DNA from: Acidimicrobiales bacterium
GTDB lineage: Bacteria > Actinomycetota > Acidimicrobiia > Acidimicrobiales > SZUA-35
Direction: 5' to 3'
Length of the DNA: 64,000 bases
Assembly: GCA_033851875.1 (NCBI GenBank)
Contig: JAWSVN010000038.1
Span: forward strand, 2,914 to 66,913
In this document: positions 1 to 43,838 of the stretch, piece after piece
Numbering within the stretch: position 1 is the stretch's first letter
Layout of the letters: each line of letters starts with the position of its first letter
Notes under the pieces: generated by a model
Databases searched by the model: none
Told to the model about the DNA's origin: nothing
The model's input: the letters and a program-made list of their open reading frames with translations, nothing else
Translations under genes and position numbers: made by a program

Positions 1-642
1 CCTATCGCCCATTCGGTCCGTCATGGCCTCATTTGCCGCTGCAATCATCTCACGCCGCTCCGTGCGAGAGGGTCGGGCCTCTGGGGCGAAATCTCTCCCG
101 AACGGACTCGCAGCAAAGTCTGGCCTGCTGTCAACTTCTGCAGGAAAGCTCGCTGGCGGCCTCGCCAAGGCAGTACTTGAACACAACAGGACCGCCGTCA
201 ACGCTGATATTGCAGCGGGTAACACTCTTCTTGGACTCATTGCCTCACCTCTCTCAGCCATATCTTGGCCTCGAACGTTGGTCTAACATGACCTAGCGTC
301 ACGTTCAAGTCCATCAGTGACGTCGGGAGCAACTGTCTGGGACCATCCAAGCAGGGATGGTTGGCAGGAGTCTGACAACTTGCGGTGGTGGGTTGCCGCG
401 CCGCAGGAACTCGCCATCGCCGCCCCGAGTGGCCGACTGCGACCGTCGAATGCGCCGAGACTCACCAGTAGCAACCATGTCGAAGTCGTGCCCCACGAGC
501 CTCGAGCGATCGGCGGCACCGAACCTACGGATATCGCCCCCTTCGGTTCCAGAGTCTCCAGTCGTGACCACAGGGCAGCGTTTTGGTACCGGGTTGGTAC
601 CCGCCGGCCACAGCATTCCCAGCTGTGGTGGCGCGCAACTCA

Positions 643-1332
643 ATGGTCGACAGTGCACTGCGAGCCTCGCTGCGATGGCACTCCGAACTACTGAGAGGGG
701 TTGCAGCTGTTCAGGATGCTCTTGGCCTGGAGGGAAAGGCGAGCTGCCTCGCATCCCACCCCTACGAAGGGGAATTCGATCGCGTTGTTGGCAATTGCCT
801 GCCCCGACGCCTGCTGCTCGAGGTCGCACGACGCGACACTGCAGCTCTTGAGACTCTCCGACGTGAGCGAGCGCAGATTTCGTCGAGTCTGAGTGAGGCT
901 GATTTTCAGCTCGCAAGCGCGTATATCGTCAGCCGGACCTCAGGGGCTTCGCGCGCAAGCAGTTCGTCGTCCGGAACGAGCGGACCAGAAGTCCCCCTCG
1001 AGCTCATTCGCTTCGACCTGCTAGCCCGCTTGCCGTCTAGGTCGAGCCTGACGACGCAGATCGGGGCGCTGGAGAAGGCCCTCGAGGCGGAGGCAGAGCG
1101 GCAGACCCCACTAACAGCAGAGGAGCGTCGCGTTTTGGCTGCCCTAGCCTCGGGGCAGAAAATGGCAGACGTCGCCGAGGCAGAGAGTGTTTCGGAACGA
1201 ACGCTATACCGACGCACCGGCGACATTTGTGCTCGGCTTGGCACCACAAGCCTTCGGGAGGCCATCTCCACCGCCGCAGAGTCTGGGTGGCTCGTAGGGC
1301 AGGGCCGAGGCCGACGAGGCACTCCTCGCTAG
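643..1332 (+). CDS. LuxR/GerE-family transcriptional regulator (C-terminal HTH)
   Basis: ORF 583..1332. C-terminus LTAEERRVLAALASGQKMADVAEAESVSERTLYRRTGDICARLG is a GerE-type HTH. The track start at 583 is TTG; the first in-frame ATG at 643 is preferred. The N-terminal ~150 aa has no domain I recognise. Confidence 0.6.
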   Translation: MVDSALRASLRWHSELLRGVAAVQDALGLEGKASCLASHPYEGEFDRVVGNCLPRRLLLEVARRDTAALETLRRERAQISSSLSEADFQLASAYIVSRTSGASRASSSSSGTSGPEVPLELIRFDLLARLPSRSSLTTQIGALEKALEAEAERQTPLTAEERRVLAALASGQKMADVAEAESVSERTLYRRTGDICARLGTTSLREAISTAAESGWLVGQGRGRRGTPR

Positions 1333-1540: not shown

Positions 1541-1954
1541 CTAGAGCTCTCCCACGTGCACATTGGCGTACGGCGCAGCCAGCCTGCCGATGTCTCGTGG
1601 GTCGCCGGTGAGCACGACACCGCCCCCCGCCTCCACCGCACATGCAACGCAGTGGGCGTCGGCAAGGTCCACACTCCCGGCACCTGCGGCATGAAGGATC
1701 CCGCCGACGAGCCTGGCGACCGAGCGGTCGGTGTCTCGCACCACCAATCCGGTCTCACGGCTGAGGCAGGCGTCGACGAGCGCATTCCGGTTCGGCGCCC
1801 GATAGAGCTCTGCCAGCGTCACGGCCGACACGACCACCTCTCGCCTGAGCCGACGTGCCGCCTCGAGCGCCGCTCGGACTTCATCGAAGCGAGCATGCCG
1901 CCTGTCGGCCAGCGCCGCCATTGCCTCGGCATCGAGGACAAGGGCACGACTCAC
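1541..1954 (-). CDS. vapC: PIN-domain toxin, VapC-like
   Basis: 137 aa. N-terminal LVLDAEA plus later acidic positions (TLAELY, LADAHCVA) fit the PIN layout. A 4-nt ATGA stop/start overlap with the upstream small ORF is typical of type II TA pairs. Confidence 0.75.
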   Translation of the reverse strand: MSRALVLDAEAMAALADRRHARFDEVRAALEAARRLRREVVVSAVTLAELYRAPNRNALVDACLSRETGLVVRDTDRSVARLVGGILHAAGAGSVDLADAHCVACAVEAGGGVVLTGDPRDIGRLAAPYANVHVGEL

Positions 1955-2178
1955 GCGAGAAGATCCAGGTACTTCTCGACCAGCGCCTCATCGACGGGCC
2001 CGTTGGTCGACTCGAAGTCCGACAGCATCTCATCGAGCAGTCGAAGACGACGACGACGCTCGAGCTCATTGCGCACTGCGAGGTTCACCTGGCCGGAGAT
2101 GGCCTCTCCCTCGGCCTCCAGCTCCTCGATGAGGTCGGCATCGATCGACACCGACACTTTTCGCTTCGCCACGGTCAT
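1951..2178 (-). CDS. vapB: Ribbon-helix-helix type antitoxin, VapB-like
   Basis: 75 aa. N-terminus KRKVSVSIDADLIEELE looks like an RHH/CopG beta-strand plus helix. It sits immediately upstream of the PIN ORF and overlaps it by 4 nt. Confidence 0.65.
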   Translation of the reverse strand: MTVAKRKVSVSIDADLIEELEAEGEAISGQVNLAVRNELERRRRLRLLDEMLSDFESTNGPVDEALVEKYLDLLA

Positions 2179-2250
2179 ACTCCGAGCCTACCAAAGTAGG
2201 ATCGGAGCGTCGAGGGTCGATCGCAGCGACCACGTACCGACGGGAGACTC

Positions 2251-2892
2251 ATGCGAGTCAACGCAGTCGCACTCACCATCCTCGCTTCCGCGCTGGCGGT
2301 AGCGCCTGCCTGTGGCACCTCTAGCGACGCCGACCTGGTGGCGGCCCTCACCACCACGACGAGTCAGCCCCCAACGACAGCGGCCCTCAGTCCGGCGGAT
2401 GCCCTTGCCGCCTGCGTCGCATCGCGCGACGTCGACCCGACCGCCCTGCGACCGTCCGACCCCGTGGTCGGCGTCGACGCTGAAGGCGTTGAGTATTGCC
2501 TCGGGCCGGTCGAACTGACGGGAGAGGCGATCGAGGATGTGGTCATGGTCTCGGACGACTGGGCTCCAAGCGTCGACGTGACGCTCTCCCCCGTCGGGAT
2601 CGTCGCCTTCAACACTGCTGCCGCACGGTGCTTCGAGGCCGAACCGACGTGCCCGTTCTCGCAGCTGGCCATCGTCGCCGACGGGGACGTCATCAGCGCA
2701 CCGAGGATCGCTACGCCGTCCTTCGAGCGAGATCAGATCCAAATAGGCGGGCCGGACGAGACTCGACTCGCCCAGTTGATCGACGCCGTGGAATCGTCGC
2801 CCGCCAGCATCGAGTTCCGGCCCGTGATCGCCGAGGTCCCCTTCGGCATGTCGCTCGAGTCGATCGCCGACATCCTCGACACGAAGGACTGA
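2251..2892 (+). CDS. Putative secreted lipoprotein, unknown function
   Basis: 213 aa. Signal peptide MRVNAVALTILASALAVAPAC with a Cys at the lipobox position, followed by a Thr/Pro-rich linker. Preferred over the antisense ORF 2188..2985, which is Arg/Gly-rich with no motifs. Confidence 0.5.
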   Translation: MRVNAVALTILASALAVAPACGTSSDADLVAALTTTTSQPPTTAALSPADALAACVASRDVDPTALRPSDPVVGVDAEGVEYCLGPVELTGEAIEDVVMVSDDWAPSVDVTLSPVGIVAFNTAAARCFEAEPTCPFSQLAIVADGDVISAPRIATPSFERDQIQIGGPDETRLAQLIDAVESSPASIEFRPVIAEVPFGMSLESIADILDTKD

Positions 2893-2983
2893 CCTAGGGA
2901 CCAGGTCCGAACGCCGTCTACTCGGGCGAACGTCCTCGCCCAACTCTCGGGTCTCGAAGTTCGCGCCTGGCAGGCTGTGTGTC

Positions 2984-3472
2984 ATGCCCTTGCAGATTCG
3001 GTCAGCCTCCGAAGCCGATCATGCCTTCCTCGAGGACATGACCTTCGAGGCGATCTTCGTGCGGCCCGACACCGAACCGTTCGGACGAGAGGTCCTCGAC
3101 GACCCGTCGATCCGCCACTACTTCGCCGAGTTCGGCCGACGCCCCGGCGACACCGGACTCGTCGCATTCGACGGGGATCGTCCCGTCGGCGCAGCTTGGG
3201 TCCGCCGGTTCTCGGCCGAGCATCCGGGATACGGCTGGGTCGACGAGCACACCCCCGAGCTGACGATCGCTCTTGCACCGTCACACCGGAACCTCGGGCT
3301 CGGCGCACAGCTACTCACAGCCCTGTTCAAGGCCCTCGCCGAGCAAGGCGTGGTGCAGCTCTGCCTGAGCGTCGACGACCTCTCCCCCGCTCGGGCGCTC
3401 TACCGACGTCTCGGCTTCGTCGAGGTCGCCGAAGAGGGCACCGCCGTCACGATGCTGCGCCAGCTGCCCTGA
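2984..3472 (+). CDS. GNAT-family N-acetyltransferase
   Basis: 162 aa. The acetyl-CoA binding core HRNLGLGAQLLTALFKALAEQG ... ARALYRRLGF matches the GNAT motif A/B pattern. Confidence 0.8.
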   Translation: MPLQIRSASEADHAFLEDMTFEAIFVRPDTEPFGREVLDDPSIRHYFAEFGRRPGDTGLVAFDGDRPVGAAWVRRFSAEHPGYGWVDEHTPELTIALAPSHRNLGLGAQLLTALFKALAEQGVVQLCLSVDDLSPARALYRRLGFVEVAEEGTAVTMLRQLP

Positions 3473-3528
3473 GCGCACGCCGCGGCCCTGATTCGGCCCC
3501 TCCGACACACCGACTACAACGGAGCGTC

Positions 3529-3981
3529 ATGAACACCCGCCTCCCACTCACGTCACGGCGACTCTTGGTGATCGCGCTGGCCCCGTTGGTGCTGGCAGCG
3601 GCCAGGTGCGCTCCCGGCGACACTTCCGTGGATCAGGTGGACATCGTGTCGTTCCTCGGTCCGAGGGAGGAGAGCGGCGCTGATCTGGGTTCCGGGTGGT
3701 CGCGCCAACTCGAGCTCGTGTTCTCCGACGCCGACGCTGAGGTGCTGGGGCTCGAAAGCTCGGCCAACCGCTACGAGCCGGCGGGCGCGGATGCGCTCTA
3801 CCTCGAGCTCGAGACCGGGCTGGAGGCGGACTCGTTCGACCAGTTGAACTACATCTGTTATGCGGGCGACGTCATCGTCCGCGACCTTGTCAACGGCACC
3901 GAGGCCGTTATCGCCGAGGCCGGGCGCTGTGAGTTCGAGACGAGGATCAAGCTCGACGCGAAGGCGCTGTTCTCACCCTGA
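3529..3981 (+). CDS. Putative secreted/lipoprotein, unknown function
   Basis: In-frame ATG at 3529 inside track ORF 2977..3981, preceded by GGAG (3521-3524). N-terminus MNTRLPLTSRRLLVIALAPLVLAAARC is signal-peptide-like. The upstream part of the track ORF is Arg/Pro-rich shadow sequence overlapping the GNAT gene. Confidence 0.5.
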   Translation: MNTRLPLTSRRLLVIALAPLVLAAARCAPGDTSVDQVDIVSFLGPREESGADLGSGWSRQLELVFSDADAEVLGLESSANRYEPAGADALYLELETGLEADSFDQLNYICYAGDVIVRDLVNGTEAVIAEAGRCEFETRIKLDAKALFSP

Positions 3982-3990
3982 CGTAGCCGC

Positions 3991-4054
3991 CGACAGCTCC
4001 AGGATCTTTCCTTCGCCGAAGTCAACCAGGTAGAGACGGCCGTCGTCGACCACC
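3991..4054 (-). pseudogene. Orphan 3'-end remnant homologous to the C-terminus of the dehydrogenase gene at 6358..7419
   Basis: 58/64 nt identical to 6370-6433. The minus-strand translation VVDDGRLYLVDFGEGKILELSAATSG* (stop at 3973-3975) parallels VVDDGRLYLIDFGNGEILELSAGA*. There is no homologous gene body upstream of it (4055 onward). Confidence 0.6.
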
Positions 4055-4164
4055 CGAGGCGAGCGCAACGGTCACGTAACCATCCCGAGCGGCGATCGCC
4101 ATCGGGAGCTACAAAGGTCAATGCGAGGCTGTCGTGTCGGCCTCCGAGGCTTGAAAGGGCGGCA

Positions 4165-5082
4165 ATGGACGCGTTGATCGACGAACACCTACGCGCATCG
4201 GAAGCGATCGCTCGCAACGATCCGGGAGCAGGCGCGCTCCACTTCTGCCACGTCTCGCGCGCCACGTACCACCTAGCAGGGGTGGAAGGCTGGCCCAACG
4301 CGATTGCGGCGTTTGAGGAGTCCGAGCTCGCCTCGTTGTTCAGGCGCGATCCCCTGACCAGGTGGTCAGCAGAACGGCCTCGGGGCTACCCCGGAGATGC
4401 CGGCCTGCTCGACCTGATCTATGACCACGTCGACTCGAATCGGTCCGCTGTCGAGTCCGCAGGCGACTCGATCGCGGCGGCCGTCAATGCGGTGACCTGG
4501 AACGCTCCGGAGCCTGCCGCGGTTCGCTGGCGCCGCGCCCACATCGCGGAGGAGATGGCTCGGAGATTCGCTCAACGACCCGACACGTCGGTCCTCTCCG
4601 TGGCGTCCGGGCACTGCCGCGAGCTCGAGCTGATCGACCTCGACGAGCACGAACCGATCTGGCTGGTCGACCAGGACGAAGACTCTCTGGCAGAGGCGAA
4701 GCGTAGCTACGGCGACCTCGTGGAGCCGCATCACCTCAACATCTCATCACTGCTCAGGGATTCCCTGCGAGACGAGCGCTTTGACCTGATCTACTCGCTC
4801 GGTCTCTTCGACTACCTCGACGACCGGGCAGCTCGCTTGCTGCTCTCCTCCCTCCAGAAGTCCGTGGCGACGGGCGGCGAATTGATCGTGGCCAACTTCG
4901 CGCCCTGGCCGGTGTCGATCGGCTACATGGAGTCCGCGATGCGTTGGAAGTTGATCTACCGGACCGAACTCGACCTTCGACGGATCTGGGAAGCGACACC
5001 GCTCGCCGATCACTTCAGTCTTCGCACCTACCGAGATCCTGCTGGCACTGTGGTCTACCTGGCGGCGAACCGCAGGAACTGA
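4165..5082 (+). CDS. Class I SAM-dependent methyltransferase-like protein
   Basis: 305 aa. Rossmann MTase-like motifs: VLSVASGHCRELE, LVDQDEDSL, FDLIYSLGLFDYL, GGELIVANF. ATG start at 4165. Confidence 0.6.
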   Translation: MDALIDEHLRASEAIARNDPGAGALHFCHVSRATYHLAGVEGWPNAIAAFEESELASLFRRDPLTRWSAERPRGYPGDAGLLDLIYDHVDSNRSAVESAGDSIAAAVNAVTWNAPEPAAVRWRRAHIAEEMARRFAQRPDTSVLSVASGHCRELELIDLDEHEPIWLVDQDEDSLAEAKRSYGDLVEPHHLNISSLLRDSLRDERFDLIYSLGLFDYLDDRAARLLLSSLQKSVATGGELIVANFAPWPVSIGYMESAMRWKLIYRTELDLRRIWEATPLADHFSLRTYRDPAGTVVYLAANRRN

Positions 5083-5087
5083 GCCTC

Positions 5088-6314
5088 GTGGTCGACATTC
5101 CTGCTATCGCACGGGCGATCGTCGGCGGCATTGCGACCGTCGGCCCCATCCTCTGCGCTGTTGGAGTGGCCTACGTGAGCGCCGCGTTGCTGGGGCCCCG
5201 GCCGCGCCGAGCGCGCTACGCGCTCGCTCGGCGAGGCTTCGATCCCGAAGGCCATCTGATCCCGCTCGACCGTGGCGTCGTCCTGGCAACAGCGGCGATC
5301 GTCTCCTTGGCCGTATCGTTCGCAATCGAGGAAGAGGTCCGTGTCGGGCCCAACCGGGCGATCGATCAGCTGCTTCCAGAGGGCGCCGAGACGTGGGTAC
5401 TGCAGCACGGCACGGATCACTTCATGAACAACAGCGCGATCGATCCGGCAAGCGCCGAACAAGTCCTTGCTCAACTCTCGGATATGGGCGAAGGCGCCGT
5501 ATTGGTCTCGGGAACTCTGGCTTCCGTGACGGTCGGCGAGGATCGAGTCACGGGCTTCGTCTTCGCGCTGCCAACGAGCCAGAACCCCGTGCCCCGCCGC
5601 GGCCACACCTGCGAGTCCGAGAGCGATCAGCCGTGTCTCCTACCACGCTCCGGCGCCATCGTGGACGCCGGCGAAGGAGTAGGAATCGGTGACTCGATCA
5701 GTGTTCGCGGCGTTCCGCTCGAAGTCGTCGCGCACCCCGAACGGCCACGATCACTTCTGAATCGACTCGTCGTCTACGTGGACCACGAAGCCTTCGCCCG
5801 GATCGAACCCGGGAGTCGCTACTTCGCGATCGCCACAACTGCGCCGGTTGCCGAACTCGGCCCACTTCCGGCCGGCCTGGAGGCATTGTCGACGGACGAA
5901 CTCCGCCAGCGGAACGAGGCGTTCTGGGCGGGCAACGGAACGCCGCTCCTGCTGCTCCTGATCCTGCTCGTGATGACCTTCGCCAGCACCGCCCTGTACG
6001 GCGCTCTACGGACCGACTACGACCGCCATCGACGGCTTCTGTCAACGCTGTGGGCCCTTGGACAGACTCGAACCGAGATGCTCGACACGTTCCTTCTCCG
6101 AAGCCTTCACCTCACCGCCCTTGCCGCACCACCTGCTGCGGCGCTTTCGTGGATTCTGATGGCGGCCAGTTCAGCGACCATCCTCGGCTTCAACGGACGG
6201 ATCACCCTCCTTCACCTGCTGGGAGCAACCGGCTCGGTCATCGCGTGCTCGTTGGCGACGATCAGCGCCCTTGCCGTGGCGACCCGCAACGCCACCCCCG
6301 CCGCGCACCTCTAG
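5088..6314 (+). CDS. FtsX/MacB-like ABC permease-family membrane protein (no cognate ATPase adjacent)
   Basis: Track ORF 4944..6314 trimmed to the in-frame GTG at 5088, 6 nt after the methyltransferase stop. It has an N-terminal TM helix, a large extracytoplasmic region, and a C-terminal FtsX-type module (RRLLSTLWALGQTRTEMLDTFLLRSL plus 3 TM helices). Confidence 0.6.
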   Translation: MVDIPAIARAIVGGIATVGPILCAVGVAYVSAALLGPRPRRARYALARRGFDPEGHLIPLDRGVVLATAAIVSLAVSFAIEEEVRVGPNRAIDQLLPEGAETWVLQHGTDHFMNNSAIDPASAEQVLAQLSDMGEGAVLVSGTLASVTVGEDRVTGFVFALPTSQNPVPRRGHTCESESDQPCLLPRSGAIVDAGEGVGIGDSISVRGVPLEVVAHPERPRSLLNRLVVYVDHEAFARIEPGSRYFAIATTAPVAELGPLPAGLEALSTDELRQRNEAFWAGNGTPLLLLLILLVMTFASTALYGALRTDYDRHRRLLSTLWALGQTRTEMLDTFLLRSLHLTALAAPPAAALSWILMAASSATILGFNGRITLLHLLGATGSVIACSLATISALAVATRNATPAAHL

Positions 6315-6357
6315 TCGGGGCTGGCCGGGCGTGAGCGGTCGGGCATCATCTGGCCCG

Positions 6358-7419
6358 TCAGGCGCCGGCCGACAGCTCCAGGATCTCGCCGTTGCCGAAG
6401 TCGATCAGGTAGAGACGGCCGTCGTCGACCACCAGCTGCTGGGGCCGCTCGACCGAATCGAGCAGCGTGGCGACCGCTCCCCCGTCGGCCGGCACCGACA
6501 CGACCTCGCCGGCATTCCACAACGCCACCAGCAGCTCACCCGGCTGCCACGGCGACTCGACGATCGACGTCGGCGTCGCTCCCCGGTCGAACACGATCAG
6601 GGAGCCAGGCACGTCGGCGCAACGCTCGGCGGTGCCGTCGAACTCAGCCACCGGTCGGTTGTCGTCCACGCAGTGCGGCCAGCCGTGATCCGCTCCCTCG
6701 GCGACGGCCACCACCTCGTCGAGCGCGACCTCACCGTCGTAGACACCGTCCGCGATCTCGACGGTCCACAGCGTCCCGTCGCTCGCCCGCACCTGTGCGT
6801 ACGCGTTCTTGAACCCGGAGCCGACCGGCTCCACCGCACCATCGGGGCCGACGGCCCACAACACGCCGGACGAGAGCGTCGGCGACGCCGGCGGCTCGAT
6901 CCGGCTGCGCAACGAGCCGGTGGTGGCGAACAAGAGCCGCTCGCCCCCATCGACGACGTCGACGCTGAGCGAACCCGACGACCGACCGTTGAACGCCATG
7001 TCATCGACGACGACCTCGACCTCGGAACCGTCGAGCGTCGACACCGTGAGCCGGCGACGTTCCTGCACCCACAGCCGACCATCGAACACGGCGACGCCGG
7101 TCGGCTTGTCGAGCCCGGTCCGCACCGCCTCGCCGACCACGCCCGTCGCCGGATCGACGGGCACCACCGAGCCCGCCTCGTCGTTCTCTCCGCCCGACAG
7201 CTGGGCGACGAACCACGTCCCATCGGGCCCCACGGCGAACTGGGTCGGCCCATCGAGTCCCCCGACGACGGCTCGAACCGCCAGCGAGGTGCCGTCGACC
7301 GCTCCCCCATCGTCGGCCGACGCCGCCGGCTCGGTCTCGTCGGCAACGCAGCCGACCAACACGCAGGCGACGGCGAACACGATCGCGACCGGCCCTCGGC
7401 GGAACACGGCCCGCCTCAC
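6358..7419 (-). CDS. PQQ-dependent sugar dehydrogenase-like (GSDH/SGL type) beta-propeller lipoprotein
   Basis: Repeated propeller blade-like segments (GPDG..., GLDKPTGVAV, HGWPHC). Lipoprotein signal VAIVFAVACVLVGC. The start is set at GTG 7419, which overlaps the upstream NYN stop as GTGA; the track start at 7488 would overlap that gene by 72 nt. Confidence 0.7.
   Translation of the reverse strand: MRRAVFRRGPVAIVFAVACVLVGCVADETEPAASADDGGAVDGTSLAVRAVVGGLDGPTQFAVGPDGTWFVAQLSGGENDEAGSVVPVDPATGVVGEAVRTGLDKPTGVAVFDGRLWVQERRRLTVSTLDGSEVEVVVDDMAFNGRSSGSLSVDVVDGGERLLFATTGSLRSRIEPPASPTLSSGVLWAVGPDGAVEPVGSGFKNAYAQVRASDGTLWTVEIADGVYDGEVALDEVVAVAEGADHGWPHCVDDNRPVAEFDGTAERCADVPGSLIVFDRGATPTSIVESPWQPGELLVALWNAGEVVSVPADGGAVATLLDSVERPQQLVVDDGRLYLIDFGNGEILELSAGA
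6370..6433. repeat. Right copy of 64-bp direct repeat (partner 3991-4054)
   Basis: Direct comparison of the two stretches gives 58/64 identical positions, spaced 2379 bp apart. This copy is the functional 3' end of the 6358..7419 gene. Confidence 0.85.
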
Positions 7420-8087
7420 AGCGACGCCAGGAACGCGTCGACGTCGGCGTCGTCGAGCGGTTCGAAGTAGTCGAATCGATCCCGGCACGCTTCGACCACG
7501 TCTCGATCGATCTCGTGGAAGGCGTCGTAGCCGGCCAGGGTCCGCTCGTCGCCGCGTTCCTCCGACACGAACGCCACCTCCACCTGCCGCCGTCGACCGT
7601 TCAACACGCCGCCTCGCTCGGCCACCTCGTCGGCGATCTCCATCAGGTCGCGGTCACGCGACACGATGATCGCCGTGTCGCACTCGTCGCTCAACAGCGC
7701 ACCCACTGCGTCGAGGGCGAGGGCAACGTCGATCCCCTTCTCCCGTGCGCCGCGATGCCGCTTCACGCGGGCCCGAGCGACGTCGGGCGCCGTGTCGTAC
7801 CAGGGCGGGTCGAGGTCGCGGTCCTGCACCCGCCACTCCCAGTGGTAGCGGAGGGTCCGTTCGGTCACCCGCACCCCGGTCCGCTCGATCAGGTCGTGGC
7901 GACGCCGCACCACCTCGAACATCTGCGCGTTCTCGTCCGGGTCGTGGATCCCGGAGTAGTAGCGGGTGCCGACGAGCCGGCGCCCCTCCCCCGCCAGCGT
8001 CCGGGCGAGCAGCACCGGGTGGAGCCGGGCCCGGTAGCGACGCTGCAGCCCCTTGAACAGGTTCTGCCCGTCGATGAACACCATCAC
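7416..8087 (-). CDS. NYN-domain (LabA/DUF88, PIN-like) putative ribonuclease
   Basis: VMVFIDGQNLF ... EKGIDVALALDAV ... DTAIIVSRDRDL is the NYN signature. The start is trimmed to GTG 8087 (or ATG 8084), with GGAG about 10 nt upstream. The track start at 8258 would leave no promoter space. Confidence 0.7.
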   Translation of the reverse strand: MMVFIDGQNLFKGLQRRYRARLHPVLLARTLAGEGRRLVGTRYYSGIHDPDENAQMFEVVRRRHDLIERTGVRVTERTLRYHWEWRVQDRDLDPPWYDTAPDVARARVKRHRGAREKGIDVALALDAVGALLSDECDTAIIVSRDRDLMEIADEVAERGGVLNGRRRQVEVAFVSEERGDERTLAGYDAFHEIDRDVVEACRDRFDYFEPLDDADVDAFLASL

Positions 8088-8258
8088 CCGCTCTGACTCC
8101 ACCGGCGCTGTGTCCACCCGCTGACCTTCCGACCGTTCCGCATCGCTCACCACCCGATCGTCGCACGCCCACCGACCGAAGTGGCGGCCCCAGGCTCGGC
8201 GAGCGTGGCGAGCCATCGACCCCACCCCTCTGGTTGCGGCGCCGTCCATACTGGCCAA

Positions 8259-8483
8259 GTGCTGAACGTGACGATCGAACTGCCCGACGACGTCCTGCCG
8301 ATCATCGAGGGTCTCGACGTGCCGTTGTCGGAGTGGGTCACCGATCGGCTACGCGACCATGCCTCGGGGACCACGTCATCGTTCGCAGGCGAGATCATCG
8401 CTGATGCCGTGCTCGCTCAAGACGAGACTCCGGCCAGTCCCGAGGCGGTCGACAGCCGCCTGGGACGGTCGGCGCCCTGGTGA
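8259..8483 (+). CDS. Small hypothetical protein, RHH/antitoxin-like N-terminus
   Basis: 74 aa from the in-frame GTG at 8259. VLNVTIELPDDVLPIIEGL resembles small CopG/RHH proteins. It is divergent from the NYN gene. Weak call. Confidence 0.3.
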   Translation: MLNVTIELPDDVLPIIEGLDVPLSEWVTDRLRDHASGTTSSFAGEIIADAVLAQDETPASPEAVDSRLGRSAPW

Positions 8484-8509
8484 GCGTCAGCCGACGTCGC
8501 GGCGCTCGA
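8451..8509. repeat. Left copy of 59-bp direct repeat (partner 9209-9267)
   Basis: 56/59 identical to 9209-9267. It contains the real stop of ORF 8259..8483 and a dead copy of the ABC-2 permease 3' end (LERRDVG* on the minus strand). Confidence 0.85.
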
Positions 8510-8649
8510 GACGAGGCGCTCTGCCGCACACTCGGCCTTTGAGCGTCGCCGGAACGATGGTCGCGCACCTCGCGTACTCGCCCGAGTTCACCCAGCGCTT
8601 TGATCACGGCACTCAGCGAGATCGGCCAGCTTGTTCGCAGTGAGGTGAG

Positions 8650-9045
8650 CTAGGGACTGGATATCTCTACTCTCGAGTCCGTCGAGGTGCGACAAACCCC
8701 GCCCTCGGCGGACTCGGAAGTGACCACGGTGGCCTGGCCTGTCCCCAACACTTCGAGCCCTCTGCTTGTCTCGCGAAACAGCGCGAAGTCTGTCGCTTCG
8801 GTTGCCGGGTTCGGACCGCGAATCGATTGCTCATCAATCAGCTCGACGGCCGTTCCTCGTGCCAGCTCGACGCCACCGGCCGTTACAACTAGGACCTCCT
8901 GGGCGGAGATTTCGAGGTGTTCAGGAATGAGAAGGACAAAGGCGGCGTCCTCGCCTGTGCCCTTTCCGCATGTCTCCGAACACCCAACCAACGACAGAGC
9001 GGCAGTGATCGCAGCAACGACTGCTGCTCTCGACATCCCAGCCAT
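8650..9045 (-). CDS. Small lipoprotein, unknown function
   Basis: Track ORF 8650..9192 trimmed to ATG 9045. MAGMSRAAVVAAITAALSLVGC is a classic lipobox. The region is visibly less GC-rich than its flanks. Confidence 0.5.
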   Translation of the reverse strand: MAGMSRAAVVAAITAALSLVGCSETCGKGTGEDAAFVLLIPEHLEISAQEVLVVTAGGVELARGTAVELIDEQSIRGPNPATEATDFALFRETSRGLEVLGTGQATVVTSESAEGGVCRTSTDSRVEISSP

Positions 9046-9208
9046 CTCACTGTCATCGGCAGATTCTCTCGCTACTTGTGAGCTCTTCGGAGGTGGCGAG
9101 GCTCTGGTATCGGGAAAACTGCGGGCCCGGAGCGGACGTACCTGCGAATCTGAGGGCGTCTGAGCCGCGCGGATTGCACGCTCCTCGAACAAGAGAACGA
9201 GGCGCTCC

Positions 9209-9267
9209 GACAGCCGCCTGAGACGGTCGGCGCCCTGGTGATCCTCAGCCGACGTCGCGGCGCTCGA
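9209..9267. repeat. Right copy of 59-bp direct repeat (partner 8451-8509)
   Basis: It contains the real 3' end and stop (9245-9247) of the ABC-2 permease and a dead copy of the small-ORF end (DSRLRRSAPW*). Confidence 0.85.
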
Positions 9268-10852
9268 ACAGGGCGACGCCGGCGACCGTGCCGGCCAGAC
9301 CGATCGTGGTCAGCACCACGAGCGACAGCCACGGCTGGGCGTCGAAGGGCTGATGGGTCACGTGCGGCAGCGGCGACAGCTGCTGCACGACCATCGGCAA
9401 CCGCAACAGCTCGCCGAACAGGAACAGGATCGCCGACGCCCCGAAGGCGAACCACCCGGCCGACGCGGTGCGCCCCGACCAGCCGGTCAGTAGGACCGCC
9501 ACGCCGGTGACGGCGACGACGGCCGGCACCCGAGCCAGCGCACCCCACACCCCATCCGCGAGGCCGGTGAACTCGCCGGTGACGGCGGCGTCGGCCCCGT
9601 AGGTCCCGATCACGGCCGCCAGCAACAACATCGGCGCGGCGACCTGGGCGACCACGACGAAGGCCCCGAACCAGCGCCGCCGAGATGCGGCGGTGCCGAG
9701 GATCGCCTCCGCTCGCCCCTCGCGTTCCTCGGTGCGGATCCTCACGATCACCTGGAGCGCAGCCGCCATCGCCATCATCGCCAGCAGGGTCAGCGCCATC
9801 GAGGCGAAGCCCTCGCGGATCGAGTCCGACGACATCCCCATCGCGTCGAGCATGTCGGCCATCGTCTCGTTGTCCTCGACGAACTCGTCGAGCGACGACA
9901 GCATCGAGCCCCAGACCGCCCCGAAACCCGCAATCCCGATCGCCCACCACCACAGCGTCTGCCGCTGCAACCGCCACACCAGGCCGAGTGGCGAGACGAG
10001 CGAATCGGCGGCCCGAGGCGGCCCCGGCCGCTGGCCGATCAGTCCGGCGCCGACGTCACGCCGTCGGCTCAACGCTGCGGCCGCCACGACCCCGATCGGC
10101 ACGAGCACCGCCAAGACCGGCAGCGGCCAGATCCGGATGTCGCCATAGGGATTGAGGTGCTGGGCGAGACCGATCGGCGACAGCGTGACGAGCCAGTCAC
10201 CTCGCACATCGCCGGCGGCCCGGATCACATAGGCGAACGCGAGGAACGACATCGCCCCGCCGACCGCTCCCTTGCCGAACTCGAAGACCTGCACGATCAC
10301 GAGGGTCGCCGCGGCGAACACGAGCCCACTCAGAGCGAGACCCGACGAGAACAGCAGGGTGCGGGCCGGGTCGATCCCGTCGGCGACGAAGGTGGCGAAG
10401 ATGACCCCGCCGATCGCGGCGTTGGCGACCGCCGCTTCGGTCATGACCGCGGCGATCCGGGCCCAGGGCCCGACGGGCAGCGACCGGGTGAGTTCGACGC
10501 GGCCGGCTTCTTCCTCGGCTCGGGTGTGACGGATCACGAGCAGCAGGTTCATCAAGCCGACGATGGCGAACGTGAACGCGCTGAGTTCGAACGCGTAGCG
10601 ACCGCCGAAGGTGTCGAGCGCGTCGGCCGGCCCCGACATCGCCACCATGGCCGCGTTGGTCTCGACCAGCACCCCCTGCTCGGCCAGGATCACCTCGGGC
10701 GCCACACCCCGTGCGGCCGCCTCGGTCTCGGTGAGCGACCGCACCGAGGTCGGCGTGATCCCGACGAGGAGCCCGAGACCGAGGAGCCACATCGGCAGCT
10801 TGATCCGGTCGAGGCGGAACAGCAGCCGCAGGATCGTCAGGTAGCCGGTCAC
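9245..10852 (-). CDS. ABC-2 type exporter permease (multi-TM)
   Basis: 535 aa, about 12 hydrophobic segments. It lies 17 nt downstream of an ABC ATPase gene on the same strand. This architecture is typical of ABC-2/polyketide-exporter-like permeases. Confidence 0.8.
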   Translation of the reverse strand: MTGYLTILRLLFRLDRIKLPMWLLGLGLLVGITPTSVRSLTETEAAARGVAPEVILAEQGVLVETNAAMVAMSGPADALDTFGGRYAFELSAFTFAIVGLMNLLLVIRHTRAEEEAGRVELTRSLPVGPWARIAAVMTEAAVANAAIGGVIFATFVADGIDPARTLLFSSGLALSGLVFAAATLVIVQVFEFGKGAVGGAMSFLAFAYVIRAAGDVRGDWLVTLSPIGLAQHLNPYGDIRIWPLPVLAVLVPIGVVAAAALSRRRDVGAGLIGQRPGPPRAADSLVSPLGLVWRLQRQTLWWWAIGIAGFGAVWGSMLSSLDEFVEDNETMADMLDAMGMSSDSIREGFASMALTLLAMMAMAAALQVIVRIRTEEREGRAEAILGTAASRRRWFGAFVVVAQVAAPMLLLAAVIGTYGADAAVTGEFTGLADGVWGALARVPAVVAVTGVAVLLTGWSGRTASAGWFAFGASAILFLFGELLRLPMVVQQLSPLPHVTHQPFDAQPWLSLVVLTTIGLAGTVAGVALFERRDVG

Positions 10853-21960: not shown

Positions 21961-22947
21961 ATGTCGGATGTCATCGTCACGATCGACGACGCCATCGACG
22001 AGTTCTTCCTGGCTCGCCGACCGAAGAAGCACTCCCAACACACCCTCGCGGCCTACCGTCGCGACCTCGAGACGATCGTCCGCCAACTCGAAGAGGTGGC
22101 CGAGACGAGCCGTTCGGAGCTGCGGGTCGACGCCCTCGACGTTCGGACGATGCGGCGCGGCTTCGCCGGCATCTCCCACCAATCGGCGGCGACGATCTCG
22201 CGCACCTGGTCGACCTGGAACCAGCTCTTCACCTTCCTCGTGGCCGAGGGTGCGCTGCCGGGCAACCCGATGGCGGCCGTCGAGAAACCGCGGGTCCCCA
22301 AGAGCCGGCCGAAGGCGATCACCGGCGACGACAGCGTCCGACGTCTCCTGGCGGCGGCGGCGACCGAAGGCCCGACGGTGCGCAACCCGTGGCCCGAGCG
22401 CGACCTGGCGGTCGTGGTCACCCTGATCACCTGCGGGCTCCGACTGTCCGAGCTGCTCGATCTCACGATCCGCTCGATGGACGGGCCCGCCGGCGAGCGG
22501 GTGCTCGGCGTGCGGGGCAAGGGCCGCAAGGAACGCACGGTGCCTCTCGAGCCGGAGGTCGAGGCGATCATCCAGGGCTACCTGGAGTCGCGCCTGCGTC
22601 GTTTCCCGGGCCGGATCGCGGCGGACGCCGCCCTGTTCGTGGCCAACTCCGGTGAACCGATGCGTCGGGGTGCCCTCCAGTACCTGATCGACCGCCTCTA
22701 CCGGGAGGCCGGGATCCGGACCCGGGTGCCCGAGGGCGCCCTCGTGCACGCCCTGCGCCACACCTTCGCCACCAGCCTGGCCCGCAACGGCGCCACGGGC
22801 ACCGAACTGCAGCGTCTGCTCGGCCACGAGTCGCTCGCCACGACGCAGCGCTACGTCGATGCCACGGCCCGAGAGGTTCGGGCCGCGGCCCGCTCCAACG
22901 ACGCCTATCGAGCCCTCGAGACCCTCGACGCGGGCACCTCCACCTGA
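21961..22947 (+). CDS. Tyrosine site-specific recombinase (XerC/XerD-like integrase family)
   Basis: 328 aa. N-terminal SAM-like core-binding domain (TLAAYRRDLE). Catalytic residues in context: GLRLSEL, HALRHTFAT, LGHESLATTQRYV. Confidence 0.9.
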   Translation: MSDVIVTIDDAIDEFFLARRPKKHSQHTLAAYRRDLETIVRQLEEVAETSRSELRVDALDVRTMRRGFAGISHQSAATISRTWSTWNQLFTFLVAEGALPGNPMAAVEKPRVPKSRPKAITGDDSVRRLLAAAATEGPTVRNPWPERDLAVVVTLITCGLRLSELLDLTIRSMDGPAGERVLGVRGKGRKERTVPLEPEVEAIIQGYLESRLRRFPGRIAADAALFVANSGEPMRRGALQYLIDRLYREAGIRTRVPEGALVHALRHTFATSLARNGATGTELQRLLGHESLATTQRYVDATAREVRAAARSNDAYRALETLDAGTST

Positions 22948-26624: not shown

Positions 26625-27089
26625 TCAGAGGGGTTGGTGCGGTTCGATGCCGTCACCCATCGGGCAGGCGACATCGCGCTGCCCCCGACCGATCGGCAGG
26701 AAACACAGCGAACAGACGAACGTGTCGCCGACTTTGGTCGACGCCGCGTTCGACGAGCCCGACTCGTCGTCGTCCTCGTCGTCCTCATCATCGTCGGCCG
26801 TAGCCATACGGACTTTGAGGATCTCCTCCAGATCGGCCTCGACATCGTCGGGGTCGTCGTCCTCGTCCTCGTCCTCGTCTTCAGCGTCGACTCGGCGGGC
26901 CCGGGGGCGGGCCTCTTCCTCGTCGTCGTCGTCGCCTTCTTCGTCGTCGTCCTCGTCGCTGAGTTCGCCGCCGAAGTCGTCGCCAATTTCGTCGTCGAGG
27001 TCGTCGTCCTCGAGGTCGTCGGGATCGACCTCGTCGTCCATCTCCTCTTCGTCTTCGAGGAGTTCGTCGTTGAGTTCTTCGTCGCTCAT
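26625..27089 (-). CDS. DUF4193-family protein (extremely acidic N-terminus, Cys-containing C-terminus)
   Basis: Trimmed to ATG 27089 (MSDEELNDELLEDEEE...). The C-terminal FVCSLCFLPIGRGQ...CPMG matches the DUF4193 pattern as I recall it. Confidence 0.75.
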   Translation of the reverse strand: MSDEELNDELLEDEEEMDDEVDPDDLEDDDLDDEIGDDFGGELSDEDDDEEGDDDDEEEARPRARRVDAEDEDEDEDDDPDDVEADLEEILKVRMATADDDEDDEDDDESGSSNAASTKVGDTFVCSLCFLPIGRGQRDVACPMGDGIEPHQPL

Positions 27090-27233: not shown

Positions 27234-28112
27234 TCAGCGGGGCCAGTTCGTCTCCCCGGCGAATCGCTGGGTGAGGACGAGCACGTTGGCGACGTAGCCC
27301 TCGGAGACCTCCAGCACGCCGTCCCGGTCGACCGAGTTCGGCCCCTGGAAGTACCCGGCGAGCGCGATCTCGACGTCGCCTCCCGAACGATCCAGCAGGT
27401 ATCGCAGGTAGCGGGCGCTGATGCGGATGTTGTCCTCGGGCACGGCGGGGTCGAGGTCGGGCCGACCGATGAACCGTTCCGCCACCCAGGCGCTCGTGGC
27501 CGGCATCAGCTGGCCGATCCCGATCGCCCCGGCCGACGACACGGCGTCGTTCTGCCACCCGGACTCCTGCCAGGCCACGCCCATCAGCAGGTGTGGATCG
27601 ATGCCGTTGCGGCCCGCCCACTCGTGGAACAGGGGCACGTAGCTGCGGCGGACCGGGTCGTTGGCGATCGCGGCGGGCAACGACGCGCTCGGCGTCGCTC
27701 CACCGGGCACCACGAGGGTGGCGCCGGCCCGCACCCGGTGGGGGTCGGTGATCCCGTTGGCCTCCATCAGCGCGCTGAGGCTGACGCCGTGGTCACGAGC
27801 GATGATCGACAGGGTGTCGCCGGGCTGGACCACATGGGTCGTCGACGCTGCGGTCGACCCTGCGGTCGGCAGCTCGAGACGCTGACCGATCCGGATCCGG
27901 TTGGCGTCGGCCAGACCGTTGCGCTCCATCAGATCGCGAACGCTCGCGCCGTGATCGCGAGCGATCTCCGAGAGCGTGTCGCCGGGCTGCACCACGTAGG
28001 GCTCGGCTCGGACGACGCTCGGGGCCACGCCCACCAGCGCCCCCGTCAGGGCCACGGTTGTCACGACACGGCGCGCCCAGGGACGTGCCGACTCCGCCAG
28101 AAGTTCCACCAT
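27234..28112 (-). CDS. Secreted 2xLysM plus lytic transglycosylase (SLT domain) cell-wall hydrolase
   Basis: Signal peptide. Two LysM repeats (YVVQPGDTLSEIARDHG..., HVVQPGDTLSIIARDHG...). SLT core MGVAWQESGW...GIGQLMP with the catalytic Glu context. Confidence 0.85.
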   Translation of the reverse strand: MVELLAESARPWARRVVTTVALTGALVGVAPSVVRAEPYVVQPGDTLSEIARDHGASVRDLMERNGLADANRIRIGQRLELPTAGSTAASTTHVVQPGDTLSIIARDHGVSLSALMEANGITDPHRVRAGATLVVPGGATPSASLPAAIANDPVRRSYVPLFHEWAGRNGIDPHLLMGVAWQESGWQNDAVSSAGAIGIGQLMPATSAWVAERFIGRPDLDPAVPEDNIRISARYLRYLLDRSGGDVEIALAGYFQGPNSVDRDGVLEVSEGYVANVLVLTQRFAGETNWPR

Positions 28113-39477: not shown

Positions 39478-40844
39478 AGGCTCTCGATGAGCTTCGCCAC
39501 CCGATCGTCCTCGTAGCGGAACGGGTCCTTGCAGAGGACGGTGCGCTGGGCCTGATCGTTGAGCTTCAGGTGCACCCAGTCGACGGTGTAGTCACGCTTG
39601 CGTTCCTTCGCCTTCGCGATGAACTCGCCCCGGAGCTTCGCCCGCGTCGTCTGGGGCGGCAGCTCGACGGCCTCGAACATCTCGTCGTCGTGCAGGGTCC
39701 GCTCGACCATGTCACGGTTCTGGAGCTTGTAGAACAGTCCACGGTCGCGGCGGATGTCGTGGTACTGCAGGTCGATCAACTGCACCCGAGCGTCGGACAG
39801 GGGCAGATCGTGCTTGGCCCGATACGACTCGACCAGATTGTGCTTGATCACCCAGTCGAGCTCGCGGTCGAGCTTGAACGGGTCCTGTTCGAGATGGGTC
39901 ATCACGTGCTCCCACATGTGGAGCGCCTGCATCTCGTCGTCGGGAAGACCCTTCACCTCGGCGTAGCGAAGCGCCCGATTCAGGTACTCGCTCTGGATCT
40001 CGAGAGCCGACGCCTCACGGCCGTTGGCCAGACGAACCTTGCGGGTCATCGTCAGGTCGTGACTGATCTCGCGGATCGCGCGGATCGGGTTCTCGAGCGT
40101 CATGTCGCGCAGGACGCACGACGGGTCCTCGACCATGCGCAACAACACCGCCATCGCGCCGACCTTGAGGAAGGTCGTGTACTCGCTCATGTTCGAGTCG
40201 CCGACGATCACGTGCAGGCGCCGGAAGTGCTCGGCGTCGGCGTGGGGCTCGTCGCGGGTGTTGATGATCGGCCGACTCCGGGTGGTCGCCGACGAGACTC
40301 CTTCCCAGATGTGTTCGGCCCGCTGCGAAACAGCGAACATCGCGCCACGAGCGGTCTGGAGCACCTTGCCGGCGCCGGCGTAGATCTGGCGAGACACCAG
40401 GAAGGGGATCAGCACCTCGGAGTAATGGCTGGTGTCGTCGCTGCGGTGCGTCAGGTAGTTCTCGTGGCAGCCATAGGAGTTGCCGGCCGAGTCGGTGTTG
40501 TTCTTGAACAGGTGGATGACGCCGCGGATGCCCTCGTCGCGCAGGCGCTCCTCCGCCGAGTCGAGGAGCTGTTCGAGGATGCGCTCGCCGGCCTTGTCGT
40601 GGACGACGACCTGCCCGATCGAGTCGCACTCGGCCGTGGCGTACTCGGGGTGGGACCCGACATCGAGGTAGAGCCGGGCGCCGTTGACGAGGAAGACGTT
40701 CGACGAACGCCCCCACGACACCACCCGGCGGAACAGGTATCGAGCCACCTCGTCCGGGCTCAGCCGACGCTGACCGCGCAGGGTGCAAGTGACCCCGTAC
40801 TCGGTCTCGATGCCGTAGATGCGCCGTTGCTCCACGTCGCTCAA
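39474..40844 (-). CDS. pafA: Pup--protein ligase PafA
   Basis: [11 protein letters not shown]..., [19 protein letters not shown] and [16 protein letters not shown] are Pup-ligase/Dop family signatures. The PafA-type N-terminus and its position next to prcA and pafBC support the call. Confidence 0.95.
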
Positions 40845-43675: not shown

Positions 43676-43721
43676 ATCCCGCCCGCCCCGCCCCCATCCC
43701 CGCCTCACGTTCCGCGGGATT

Positions 43722-43838
43722 GGGTCAACCTCAGGGCCCCTCAGGCCCGCACACCGACCCAACGCCGCAAGACCCCGGACCTCGTTCGCATCGGGTCAAC
43801 CTCAGGGCCCCTCAGGCCCGCACACCGACCCAACGCCG
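43722..43838. repeat. Two perfect 46-bp direct repeats (43722-43767, 43793-43838; period 71 bp) in the convergent intergenic region
   Basis: gggtcaacctcagggcccctcaggcccgcacaccgacccaacgccg occurs twice exactly. It is flanked by a C-rich tract (43678-43704) and a G-rich tract (43846-43879). Confidence 0.9.

Follow-up and report, generated by a model that had tools for sequence, protein, structure and literature searches.

Introduction

How did a single dehydrogenase gene come to possess two 3′ ends, one in use and the other lying 2.4 kb away with no gene attached to it? The question arises at a locus of an Acidimicrobiales bacterium (assembly GCA_033851875.1, contig JAWSVN010000038.1), of which a stretch of 64,000 nt, referred to here as the window, was analysed. 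An intact gene for a pyrroloquinoline quinone (PQQ)-dependent sugar dehydrogenase-like β-propeller protein (6358–7419, minus strand) and a displaced copy of its last codons enclose a cassette of two genes, one methyltransferase-like and the other FtsX-like. We propose that the two copies are the scars of a recombination event that added a segment of ∼2.38 kb at the 3′ end of the dehydrogenase gene, from a close relative and within gene-end homology, and we give this reading a probability of about one in two. An earlier annotation made from the letters alone (the sequence-only reading) had likewise seen two diverged homologous gene ends created by DNA added at this 3′ end. The 2.4-kb two-gene cassette is in itself an ordinary kind of strain-level gene gain, notable solely for the absence of an integrase.

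Materials and methods

The empty-site comparison rests on two relatives. L001 is an Acidimicrobiales metagenome-assembled genome which is 87–91% identical to the window at the nucleotide level and colinear with window 16344–2925. L017 is a raw-read assembly contig (Logan ERR4801151_36047), ∼95% identical to the window, which was found through the only homologue of an ORFan lipoprotein encoded beside the displaced gene end (3529–3981). Allelic states were read from a four-way alignment and a site-by-site comparison of the two window copies, L001 and L017. The junctions were verified in L007 to L012, which are six further assemblies or contigs drawn from the same study and from raw-read assemblies, and the cargo was examined in three unrelated genomes with the closest methyltransferase homologues (L013, L014 and L015). 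All open reading frames (ORFs) of 3473–6433 were scanned for domains with the Pfam and NCBIfam models.

The direct repeat and the displaced gene end

The direct repeat consists of 3989–4054 and 6368–6433, both on the minus strand. The copies are 66 nt in length, identical at 60 of the 66 positions (91%) and spaced 2379 nt from start to start, and they were recovered in a self-BLAST of the 64 kb with an E value of ∼3e-19. The 58/64 repeat recognized earlier (3991–4054 and 6370–6433, also 2379 nt apart) is contained within it. The same self-BLAST returned only one further pair of dispersed short direct repeats of high identity (8441–8509 and 9198–9267).

The right copy runs on into the body of the intact dehydrogenase gene and translates as VVDDGRLYLIDFGNGEILELSAGA followed by the stop codon. 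The NCBI model of this gene has 349 residues, and its length is given as 349–353 residues; the source names of its 179 homologues are PQQ-dependent sugar dehydrogenase or glucose/sorbosone dehydrogenase, and a metagenome scan with the dehydrogenase as query returned nothing beyond proteins of 24% identity. The left copy belongs to an orphan 3′ end (3973–4054, minus strand) of 26 codons plus a stop, which translates as VVDDGRLYLVDFGEGKILELSAATSG and has no gene body, as the sequence-only reading had it. The cassette is positioned inside the last 25 codons of the dehydrogenase gene. Similarity stops abruptly at 4054/6433: alignments of the flanks reach only the null median, as shuffled sequence does, and homology reaching past the repeat edges was accordingly rejected in favour of sharp boundaries. 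The DNA to the right of the 4054/4055 junction, a non-coding cassette leader (4055–4164, plus strand), has no similarity to 6434–6580. The six nucleotide differences between the copies are at 4008, 4009, 4012, 4014, 4024 and 4026; four of the six are non-synonymous, the figure already given from the letters, and three residues are altered (Ile to Val, Asn to Glu and Glu to Lys).

Both junctions of this occupied arrangement were found again in L007 to L012 at 99.7–100% identity, covering at least three other assemblies and two raw-read runs. The arrangement is therefore a physical structure and not a one-off misassembly. We regard an assembly artefact, or the in situ decay of a tandem paralog of the dehydrogenase gene, as the least credible of the explanations: nothing speaks for either except the existence of a gene fragment, while the orphan boundary is sharp with no further decayed homology, the junctions recur in six other assemblies or contigs and each of the two relatives has one gene and one copy of the 66 nt. 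Several of the short-read contigs stop at or near the repeat copies (L009 at window 6433, L010 at 6417, and L011 and L012 at 6571, with L012 starting at 3979). Such breaks are expected if a repeat or a presence/absence polymorphism tangles the assembly graph, and they give a weak hint of population heterogeneity at the locus. Exact-protein look-ups in the same samples yielded no empty-site contig.

Searches of the region for tRNA, tmRNA and Rfam families gave no match. A possible third, degenerate copy of the target beside the stop codon of the GNAT acetyltransferase gene (3479–3502) was rejected, its alignment score of 14 being no better than the null median of 14.5, and the short flanking repeats or microhomologies at the ends of the methyltransferase–permease insert are 6-mers of the kind expected by chance. 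The gene adjoining the dehydrogenase gene on its other side (7416–8258) encodes an NYN-domain protein that matches the PADLOC candidate defence model HEC-09 (E = 7e-11), a match that establishes no defence system.

Empty sites in the two relatives

In L001, the window DNA from 3473 to ∼6350 is absent, as is 8510–9207. The stop codon of the GNAT acetyltransferase gene lies 9 nt from that of the dehydrogenase gene, with neither the lipoprotein gene nor the cassette present. The stretch that L001 lacks has its right edge in the spacer between the permease stop codon and the sequence downstream of the dehydrogenase gene (6315–6349).

L017 has a different empty site. Its order is GNAT, an IS110 transposase, an RES/Xre toxin–antitoxin module, the lipoprotein gene and a full-length dehydrogenase gene of 351 residues, the stop codon of which overlaps that of the lipoprotein gene by 9 nt. 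In the window, the lipoprotein gene (3529–3981, plus strand; 150 residues, lipobox AAARC) overlaps the orphan end by the same 9 nt. This lipoprotein has a single homologue, 97% identical, among 5.8 billion proteins. L017 3952–4491 corresponds to window 3515–4054, and L017 4426–5675 corresponds to window 6368–7617; both matches share the 66 nt, and the segment is therefore single-copy in L017. It is also present once in L001, and the methyltransferase–permease pair is absent from both relatives. The dehydrogenase gene directly abutting the 3529–3981 gene, which the sequence-only reading had proposed looking for in relatives, is exactly the arrangement of L017. The L017 arrangement rules out both a decayed tandem paralog, since there is one gene end and no full-length paralog corresponding to 3973–4054 in either relative, and a cassette that is ancestral and syntenic across the clade; these were the two outcomes that the earlier annotation had named as fatal to its interpretation. 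Because the lipoprotein gene is itself an insertion relative to L001, the events at this locus are nested.

Two allelic termini and the states within the repeat

The dehydrogenase genes end in different ways just distal to the repeat. The terminus is SAARSG in L017 and SAATSG in the orphan (the distal part of which, 3973–3988, is of the L017 type), while both the working copy and L001 end in SAGA. The distal part of the working end (6350–6367, minus strand) comprises the spacer ggcccg, the stop codon at 6358–6360 and the last codons for AGA; with the SAGA terminus and the ggccc spacer it is of the L001 type at 12 of 14 variable sites and differs from the L017/orphan type. From 6370 onwards the working copy carries L017-like states. 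Derivation of the orphan terminus (AATSG) by a 1-nt frameshift of AGA was dropped because the full-length L017 gene has the same type of terminus.

Since the two stop-proximal sequences differ, they cannot have arisen by duplication of one resident sequence, and a plain target-site duplication is excluded. This bears on the notion that a transposition-like or staggered-break insertion doubled 66–84 nt of the resident gene end and that the orphan then decayed. Some features do agree with it: lineage-specific states are common to both copies, all six differences are specific to the orphan and the differences in the second repeat, at 8441–9267, lie in its non-functional halves. The allelic termini, with their stop codons and spacers of the L017 and L001 types, contradict it, and neither terminal inverted repeats nor a transposase accompany the insert. 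A target duplication of 66–84 nt is far longer than any that a known transposase produces. We consider this explanation highly improbable, if marginally less so than paralog decay or an artefact.

The termini indicate instead that one of the two gene ends came in from a related strain, in which the neighbourhood downstream of this gene was a different one. The L017-type terminus is the product of an earlier event, in which the lipoprotein gene (with the toxin–antitoxin module) was placed against the dehydrogenase gene and its last three codons were replaced.

Three sites of the repeat (6415, 6418 and 6419) separate the working copy from L017, and at each of them the orphan has the window state, including a G at 6418/4039 that is found in the window lineage alone. 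L001 departs from the working copy at seven sites, at all of which the orphan sides with the working copy. The sharing of window states by the orphan means that the two ends, resident and imported, derive from very close relatives, more closely related than L017. Within the 66 nt both copies belong to the lineage of the window itself, and the allelic type differs only distal to the repeat.

Composition and identity of the cargo

The DNA between the two gene ends is compositionally foreign. Its GC content is 0.654, compared with ∼0.70–0.72 for the flanking genes, and the GC content at third codon positions (GC3) of its two genes is 0.79 and 0.75, compared with 0.88–0.93 in the flanking genes. 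A compositional analysis of 4055–6369 had been proposed by the sequence-only reading.

The first cargo gene (4165–5082, plus strand; GC3 0.79) encodes a 305-residue protein resembling class I S-adenosylmethionine (SAM)-dependent methyltransferases, with weak Pfam matches to Methyltransf_25, Methyltransf_12 and Methyltransf_11 (E values of 6e-5 to 6e-4, under the gathering score). Source names of its 319 homologues are class I SAM methyltransferase or PhcB-like; PhcB is a 3-hydroxy fatty-acid methyl ester synthase, and the connection to these homologues lies in the naming used by some sources only. It also shows a weak match to the mad2 defence model (E = 4e-6), which establishes no defence system. 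The second gene (5088–6314, plus strand; GC3 0.75) begins with a GTG at 5088 and encodes a 408-residue membrane protein, the C-terminal part of which has a weak match to FtsX (E = 7e-5, under the gathering score). The sequence-only reading had correctly placed a methyltransferase ahead of an FtsX-type permease lacking an ATPase partner, with a separation of 6 nt; the separation is 5 nt. A MacB/FtsX-type ATP-binding cassette (ABC) transporter would combine a permease domain with a cognate ABC ATPase, and 5088–6314 has no such partner. No integrase, transposase or ABC ATPase was detected in 3473–6433 in the Pfam and NCBIfam scans, as had been stated earlier for the integrase.

The two genes form a conserved module. 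The methyltransferase homologues of L013, L014 and L015 are 45–48% identical to that of the window and are situated in unrelated neighbourhoods, and the gene next to each encodes a protein of 416–420 residues that is 38–40% identical to the FtsX-like protein of the window, the L015 homologue matching PF02687. Adjacency of the pair in three unrelated neighbourhoods argues for a functional unit that was relocated; whether it travels as a cassette had been raised as a question by the sequence-only reading. No ATPase gene lies beside the pair in the window, L013, L014 or L015, and no direct repeats flank it in the three other genomes. A plasmid collection contained methyltransferases of just 34–36% identity and nothing matching the permease. 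A 44-residue ORF of one distant genome overlaps the start of the methyltransferase homologue ahead of the FtsX-like gene (L015 4829–4963 and L016 1236–1370); no counterpart is apparent in window 4055–4164.

Proposed mechanism

Our reading envisages an ancestral state like that of L017, in which the lipoprotein gene would have been convergent with a full-length dehydrogenase gene ending in SAA(T/R)SG, with a 9-nt overlap. DNA would then have arrived from a closely related strain in which the methyltransferase/FtsX-like pair lay directly downstream of a dehydrogenase gene of the SAGA type, the incoming piece consisting of the cassette and the last ∼84 nt of the donor dehydrogenase gene. Recombination with the resident gene would have taken place inside the common 66 nt, most economically by one reciprocal (Campbell-type) crossover of a circular molecule of 2379 nt (4055–6433). 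As a result, the gene body would read into the imported stop-proximal end (6350–6367), and the old end, moved 2.38 kb to the left, would be the orphan. Thereafter, the repeats would permit loss or re-gain of the cassette by recombination between the copies. Recombination within the gene-end homology is the best-supported account, and a single crossover of a 2379-nt circle yields every junction in one step, as well as the arrangement seen at the second insert. Observed are the repeat, the empty sites, the two allelic termini, the foreign composition and the lack of an integrase; the circle, the enzyme and the direction in which the event ran are putative components of this scheme. As the cassette carries no integrase, the crossover would be the work of either host homologous recombination acting on ∼66 nt or a recombinase acting in trans, and we slightly prefer the former.

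Several points weigh against this scheme. Neither a circular form, nor a donor genome, nor a recombinase was seen, and two relatives only were available for comparison. The left junction 4054/4055 has no microhomology or short flanking repeat and thus gives no sign of how the putative circle first closed. The same structures could have been produced by capture of the lipoprotein gene and a donor dehydrogenase-end fragment beside a pre-existing cassette, and L017 could represent a post-excision state. Finally, the six orphan-specific differences are confined to 19 nt (4008–4026), lying between 19 and 28 identical nucleotides (P = 0.005 under uniform placement). Uniform decay and a simple donor allele both fall short of explaining this clustering fully; a single complex mutation, or a patch that stems from a divergent allele, may be its cause. 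The orphan residues Val, Glu and Lys resemble those of distant family members.

The capture just mentioned reverses the polarity of the event. The cassette would already have stood downstream of a SAGA-type dehydrogenase gene, and a linear L017-like fragment, carrying the lipoprotein gene (possibly with the toxin–antitoxin module) and the last 82 nt of a donor dehydrogenase gene, would have been captured to its left, making the orphan a passenger rather than a displaced resident end. The working gene would then simply retain the ancestral L001-type terminus. Moreover, the succession in contig L008, namely the last 49 nt of GNAT, RES/Xre, lipoprotein and orphan, looks like a contiguous L017-like piece with both ends cut within flanking genes, and illegitimate joins of the microhomology type occur in this part of the genome (a 3-nt overlap at a deletion in L017 and the 9-nt GACCCTCGG around the L008 module). 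This course of events needs about as many steps or more, does not account for the window-specific G at 4039 of the orphan or for its lack of two L017-specific states and cannot generate the second insert, in which both convergent gene ends are duplicated as a unit. We judge it unlikely, although it is the strongest of the competitors to the crossover of an incoming circle.

Somewhat more doubtful still is site-specific integration of a non-autonomous element, in which the 66-nt repeats would be attL and attR and an integrase of the tyrosine or serine type, encoded at another genomic locus, would carry out both integration and excision. Direct repeats of 60–70 nt derived from the 3′ end of a target gene that is restored by the insertion are the classical signature of integrase islands, and a class of elements that keep att sites but have no integrase has been described (PMC5704250). 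Neither insert has an integrase in it or beside it, no remnants of integration or transfer modules were observed and the cassette pair occurs without flanking repeats in other genomes. The recombinase at 21961–22947 is, as noted earlier, the sole one in the 64 kb. Its best matches are to the XerC/XerD models (187 bits for XerC), under the curated cutoffs, and it lies 13–15 kb away in conserved sequence; nothing ties it to the events, and the link floated by the sequence-only reading was offered there as speculation. Furthermore, the three targets (the dehydrogenase end, the 8441–9267 convergent pair and the GNAT end in L008) have no significant common core. A candidate core, CGMCAGCYSC, was rejected, as it gave eight matches when five were expected and was defined post hoc, and CGACAGC and CGAGGC are simply common words of this genome.

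Comparison with known systems

Among islands that are flanked by attL and attR at the 3′ end of a gene, the cassette is closest to the integrase-less cis-mobilizable elements (CIMEs), which retain attL and attR and have lost the genes for integration and transfer (PMC5704250). Like CIMEs and other integrase-less islands, such as the ICESt1-related elements at the fda gene of Streptococcus thermophilus, it carries cargo between direct repeats of the 3′ end of a protein-coding gene; the target gene is intact, no integrase or transfer gene lies inside and neighbouring cassettes are gathered at the same locus. In contrast to CIMEs, its repeats are known from sequence and not as recombinase sites, no decayed backbone of an integrative and conjugative element (ICE) or integrative and mobilizable element (IME) accompanies it, the inserts are very small (0.7 and 2.4 kb) and three different target sequences fall within 6 kb. 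Descent from an ICE or IME would leave module remnants, or a cognate integrase-bearing element at the site in L001 or L017, and neither was found; the repeats are present and domain scans detected no integration or transfer genes. On this comparison, with two relatives available, the cassette does not qualify as a CIME despite its resemblance. With integrase-encoding islands, IMEs and ICEs it shares repeats of a gene 3′ end that leave the gene intact, and it lacks an integrase within the element.

The cassette is not an integron cassette, a transposon or an orphan array of the rhs/cdi type. Its flanking repeats are gene ends rather than attC-like imperfect palindromes, and for the only recombinase the integron-integrase model gives 56 bits (cutoff 265), compared with 187 bits for XerC. 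There is no transposase of the kind carried by transposons, insertion sequences (ISs) or mobile insertion cassettes, inspection revealed no convincing terminal inverted repeats and the termini are allelically different. As in the orphan 3′ ends of rhs and cdiA, a new 3′ end with cargo displaces the old one, which is left downstream; here, however, the gene concerned encodes a dehydrogenase and no polymorphic toxin, its two ends are nearly identical instead of being alternative domains and the cargo is not an immunity gene.

The topology is that of Campbell-type insertion-duplication, as in insertion-duplication mutagenesis: a segment that is single-copy at the empty site flanks the insert afterwards, and both copies are chimeric, part resident and part incoming, the orphan running on into the resident DNA of the lipoprotein side and the working copy into the gene body. 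A homology of 66–70 nt is within the range of RecA-dependent recombination. Unlike in the engineered procedure, the event would be natural and the circle of cassette plus gene end is putative. Homology-facilitated illegitimate recombination in natural transformation offers a further parallel, with foreign DNA beside a homologous anchor from a related strain, no mobile-element machinery and a non-homologous junction at 4054/4055. Described events of that kind usually delete recipient DNA and do not leave a duplicated gene end; here a gene end is duplicated and the junction lacks microhomology.

The second insertion and the variable islet

A second event nearby has the same outline, which bears out the recurrent process suggested earlier from the letters. 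Its repeat (8441–8509 and 9198–9267) is 69–70 nt in length with one indel and duplicates the ends of two convergent genes as a single unit. The left copy contains the functional 3′ end of a plus-strand gene of 74–100 residues and a 23-nt orphan end of an ABC-2 permease gene; the right copy contains an orphan end of the plus-strand gene and the functional 3′ end of the ABC-2 permease gene (9245–10852). Differences between the copies fall in the non-functional halves or in the 3-nt spacer. The insert of 0.69 kb (8510–9197, minus strand) has a GC content of 0.62 and carries one ORFan lipoprotein-like gene (8650–9045, GC3 0.65), and the Pfam and NCBIfam scans detected no integrase or transposase domain in it. 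It is absent from L001, where the empty site has the two convergent stop codons 3 nt apart. This topology is obtained in one step by a circle and a Campbell-type crossover, or by a staggered cut; linear capture requires a donor that already had an orphan gene end.

A degenerate third copy of this repeat at 8511–8572 was marginal (∼95th to 99th percentile) and was not accepted. An exact 11-mer, ACGAGGCGCTC, occurs in the 64-kb window only at 8511–8521, beginning 1 nt past the left copy, and at 9197–9207, forming the first 11 nt of the right copy; the native sequence at 8440–8450 is CCGAGGCGGTC. The 11-mer ACGAGGCGCTC may be an 11-nt target duplication or a microhomology from an earlier step, for example a donor insertion into the small plus-strand gene.

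The locus as a whole is a small, strain-variable (hypervariable) islet that holds toxin–antitoxin modules, an IS110 element and ORFan lipoproteins. In L008 (JBFPEF010000982, 1–1240, corresponding to window 3424–3514), a strain variant 99.7% identical to the window, a 1020-nt RES-toxin/Xre-antitoxin module, bordered by the 9-nt repeat GACCCTCGG, stands between the GNAT stop codon and the lipoprotein gene. This contig retains only the last 49 nt of GNAT, following 162 nt of unrelated sequence from the contig start, and the remnant adds one more orphan gene end to this hotspot. In L017 (1–3900), an IS110-family transposase (DEDD_Tnp_IS110 and Transposase_20) directly follows the GNAT stop codon, upstream of the RES/Xre module. 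A deletion of 1074 nt in L017 corresponds to window 1834–2907 (the 5′ part of a PIN gene, a CcdA-like antitoxin and a SecDF-like lipoprotein), with a 3-nt overlap at the joint. L007 (1–1027), otherwise 99.7% identical, shares no sequence with the window on the left-hand side of 1493, a point 48 nt beyond the stop codon of the PIN toxin gene; the LuxR-type gene of the window (583–1332) is missing there, and window 1493 is another breakpoint of the islet.

The locus is a clean natural example of gene addition in a compact genome, with empty sites in two relatives and both allelic termini side by side. Convergent stop codons at the insertion sites overlap or stand 3–9 nt apart and leave no space between the genes; the incoming DNA supplies, or leaves, a spare gene end, so that no gene is broken. 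A more general model, which we put forward as a speculation with the odds well against it, is that small integrase-less cassettes (0.7–2.4 kb, with one or two genes) move between strains of this Acidimicrobiales population, addressed by the 60–70-nt ends of tightly abutting convergent genes and excised and re-inserted by host homologous recombination. If so, they would constitute a recombinase-free cassette system, kept because, with stop codons 3–9 nt apart, only insertions bringing spare gene ends would be tolerated. Were host recombination alone to move cassettes of this type, uncultured Actinomycetota could vary part of their strain-level `flexible genome' without any enzymes of mobile elements. 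The pattern of gene-end direct repeats around acquired DNA is familiar and no new principle; its recognition is useful for annotation and population genomics.

Other repeats in the window

Outside the islet, a 49-nt near-tandem repeat (43719–43767 and 43790–43838; 98% identical, 71 nt apart) is located in the 223-nt spacer of two convergent genes ending at 43675 and 43899, between C-rich and G-rich inverted stretches. It could be an element resembling repetitive extragenic palindromes (REPs) or miniature inverted-repeat transposable elements (MITEs), or a structured RNA. Two pairs of direct repeats with 76% identity (40125–40325 with 49842–50042, and 27729–27833 with 27891–27995) are probably paralogous coding segments and an internal repeat, respectively. 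An acidic low-complexity coding stretch is located at ∼26820–27080.

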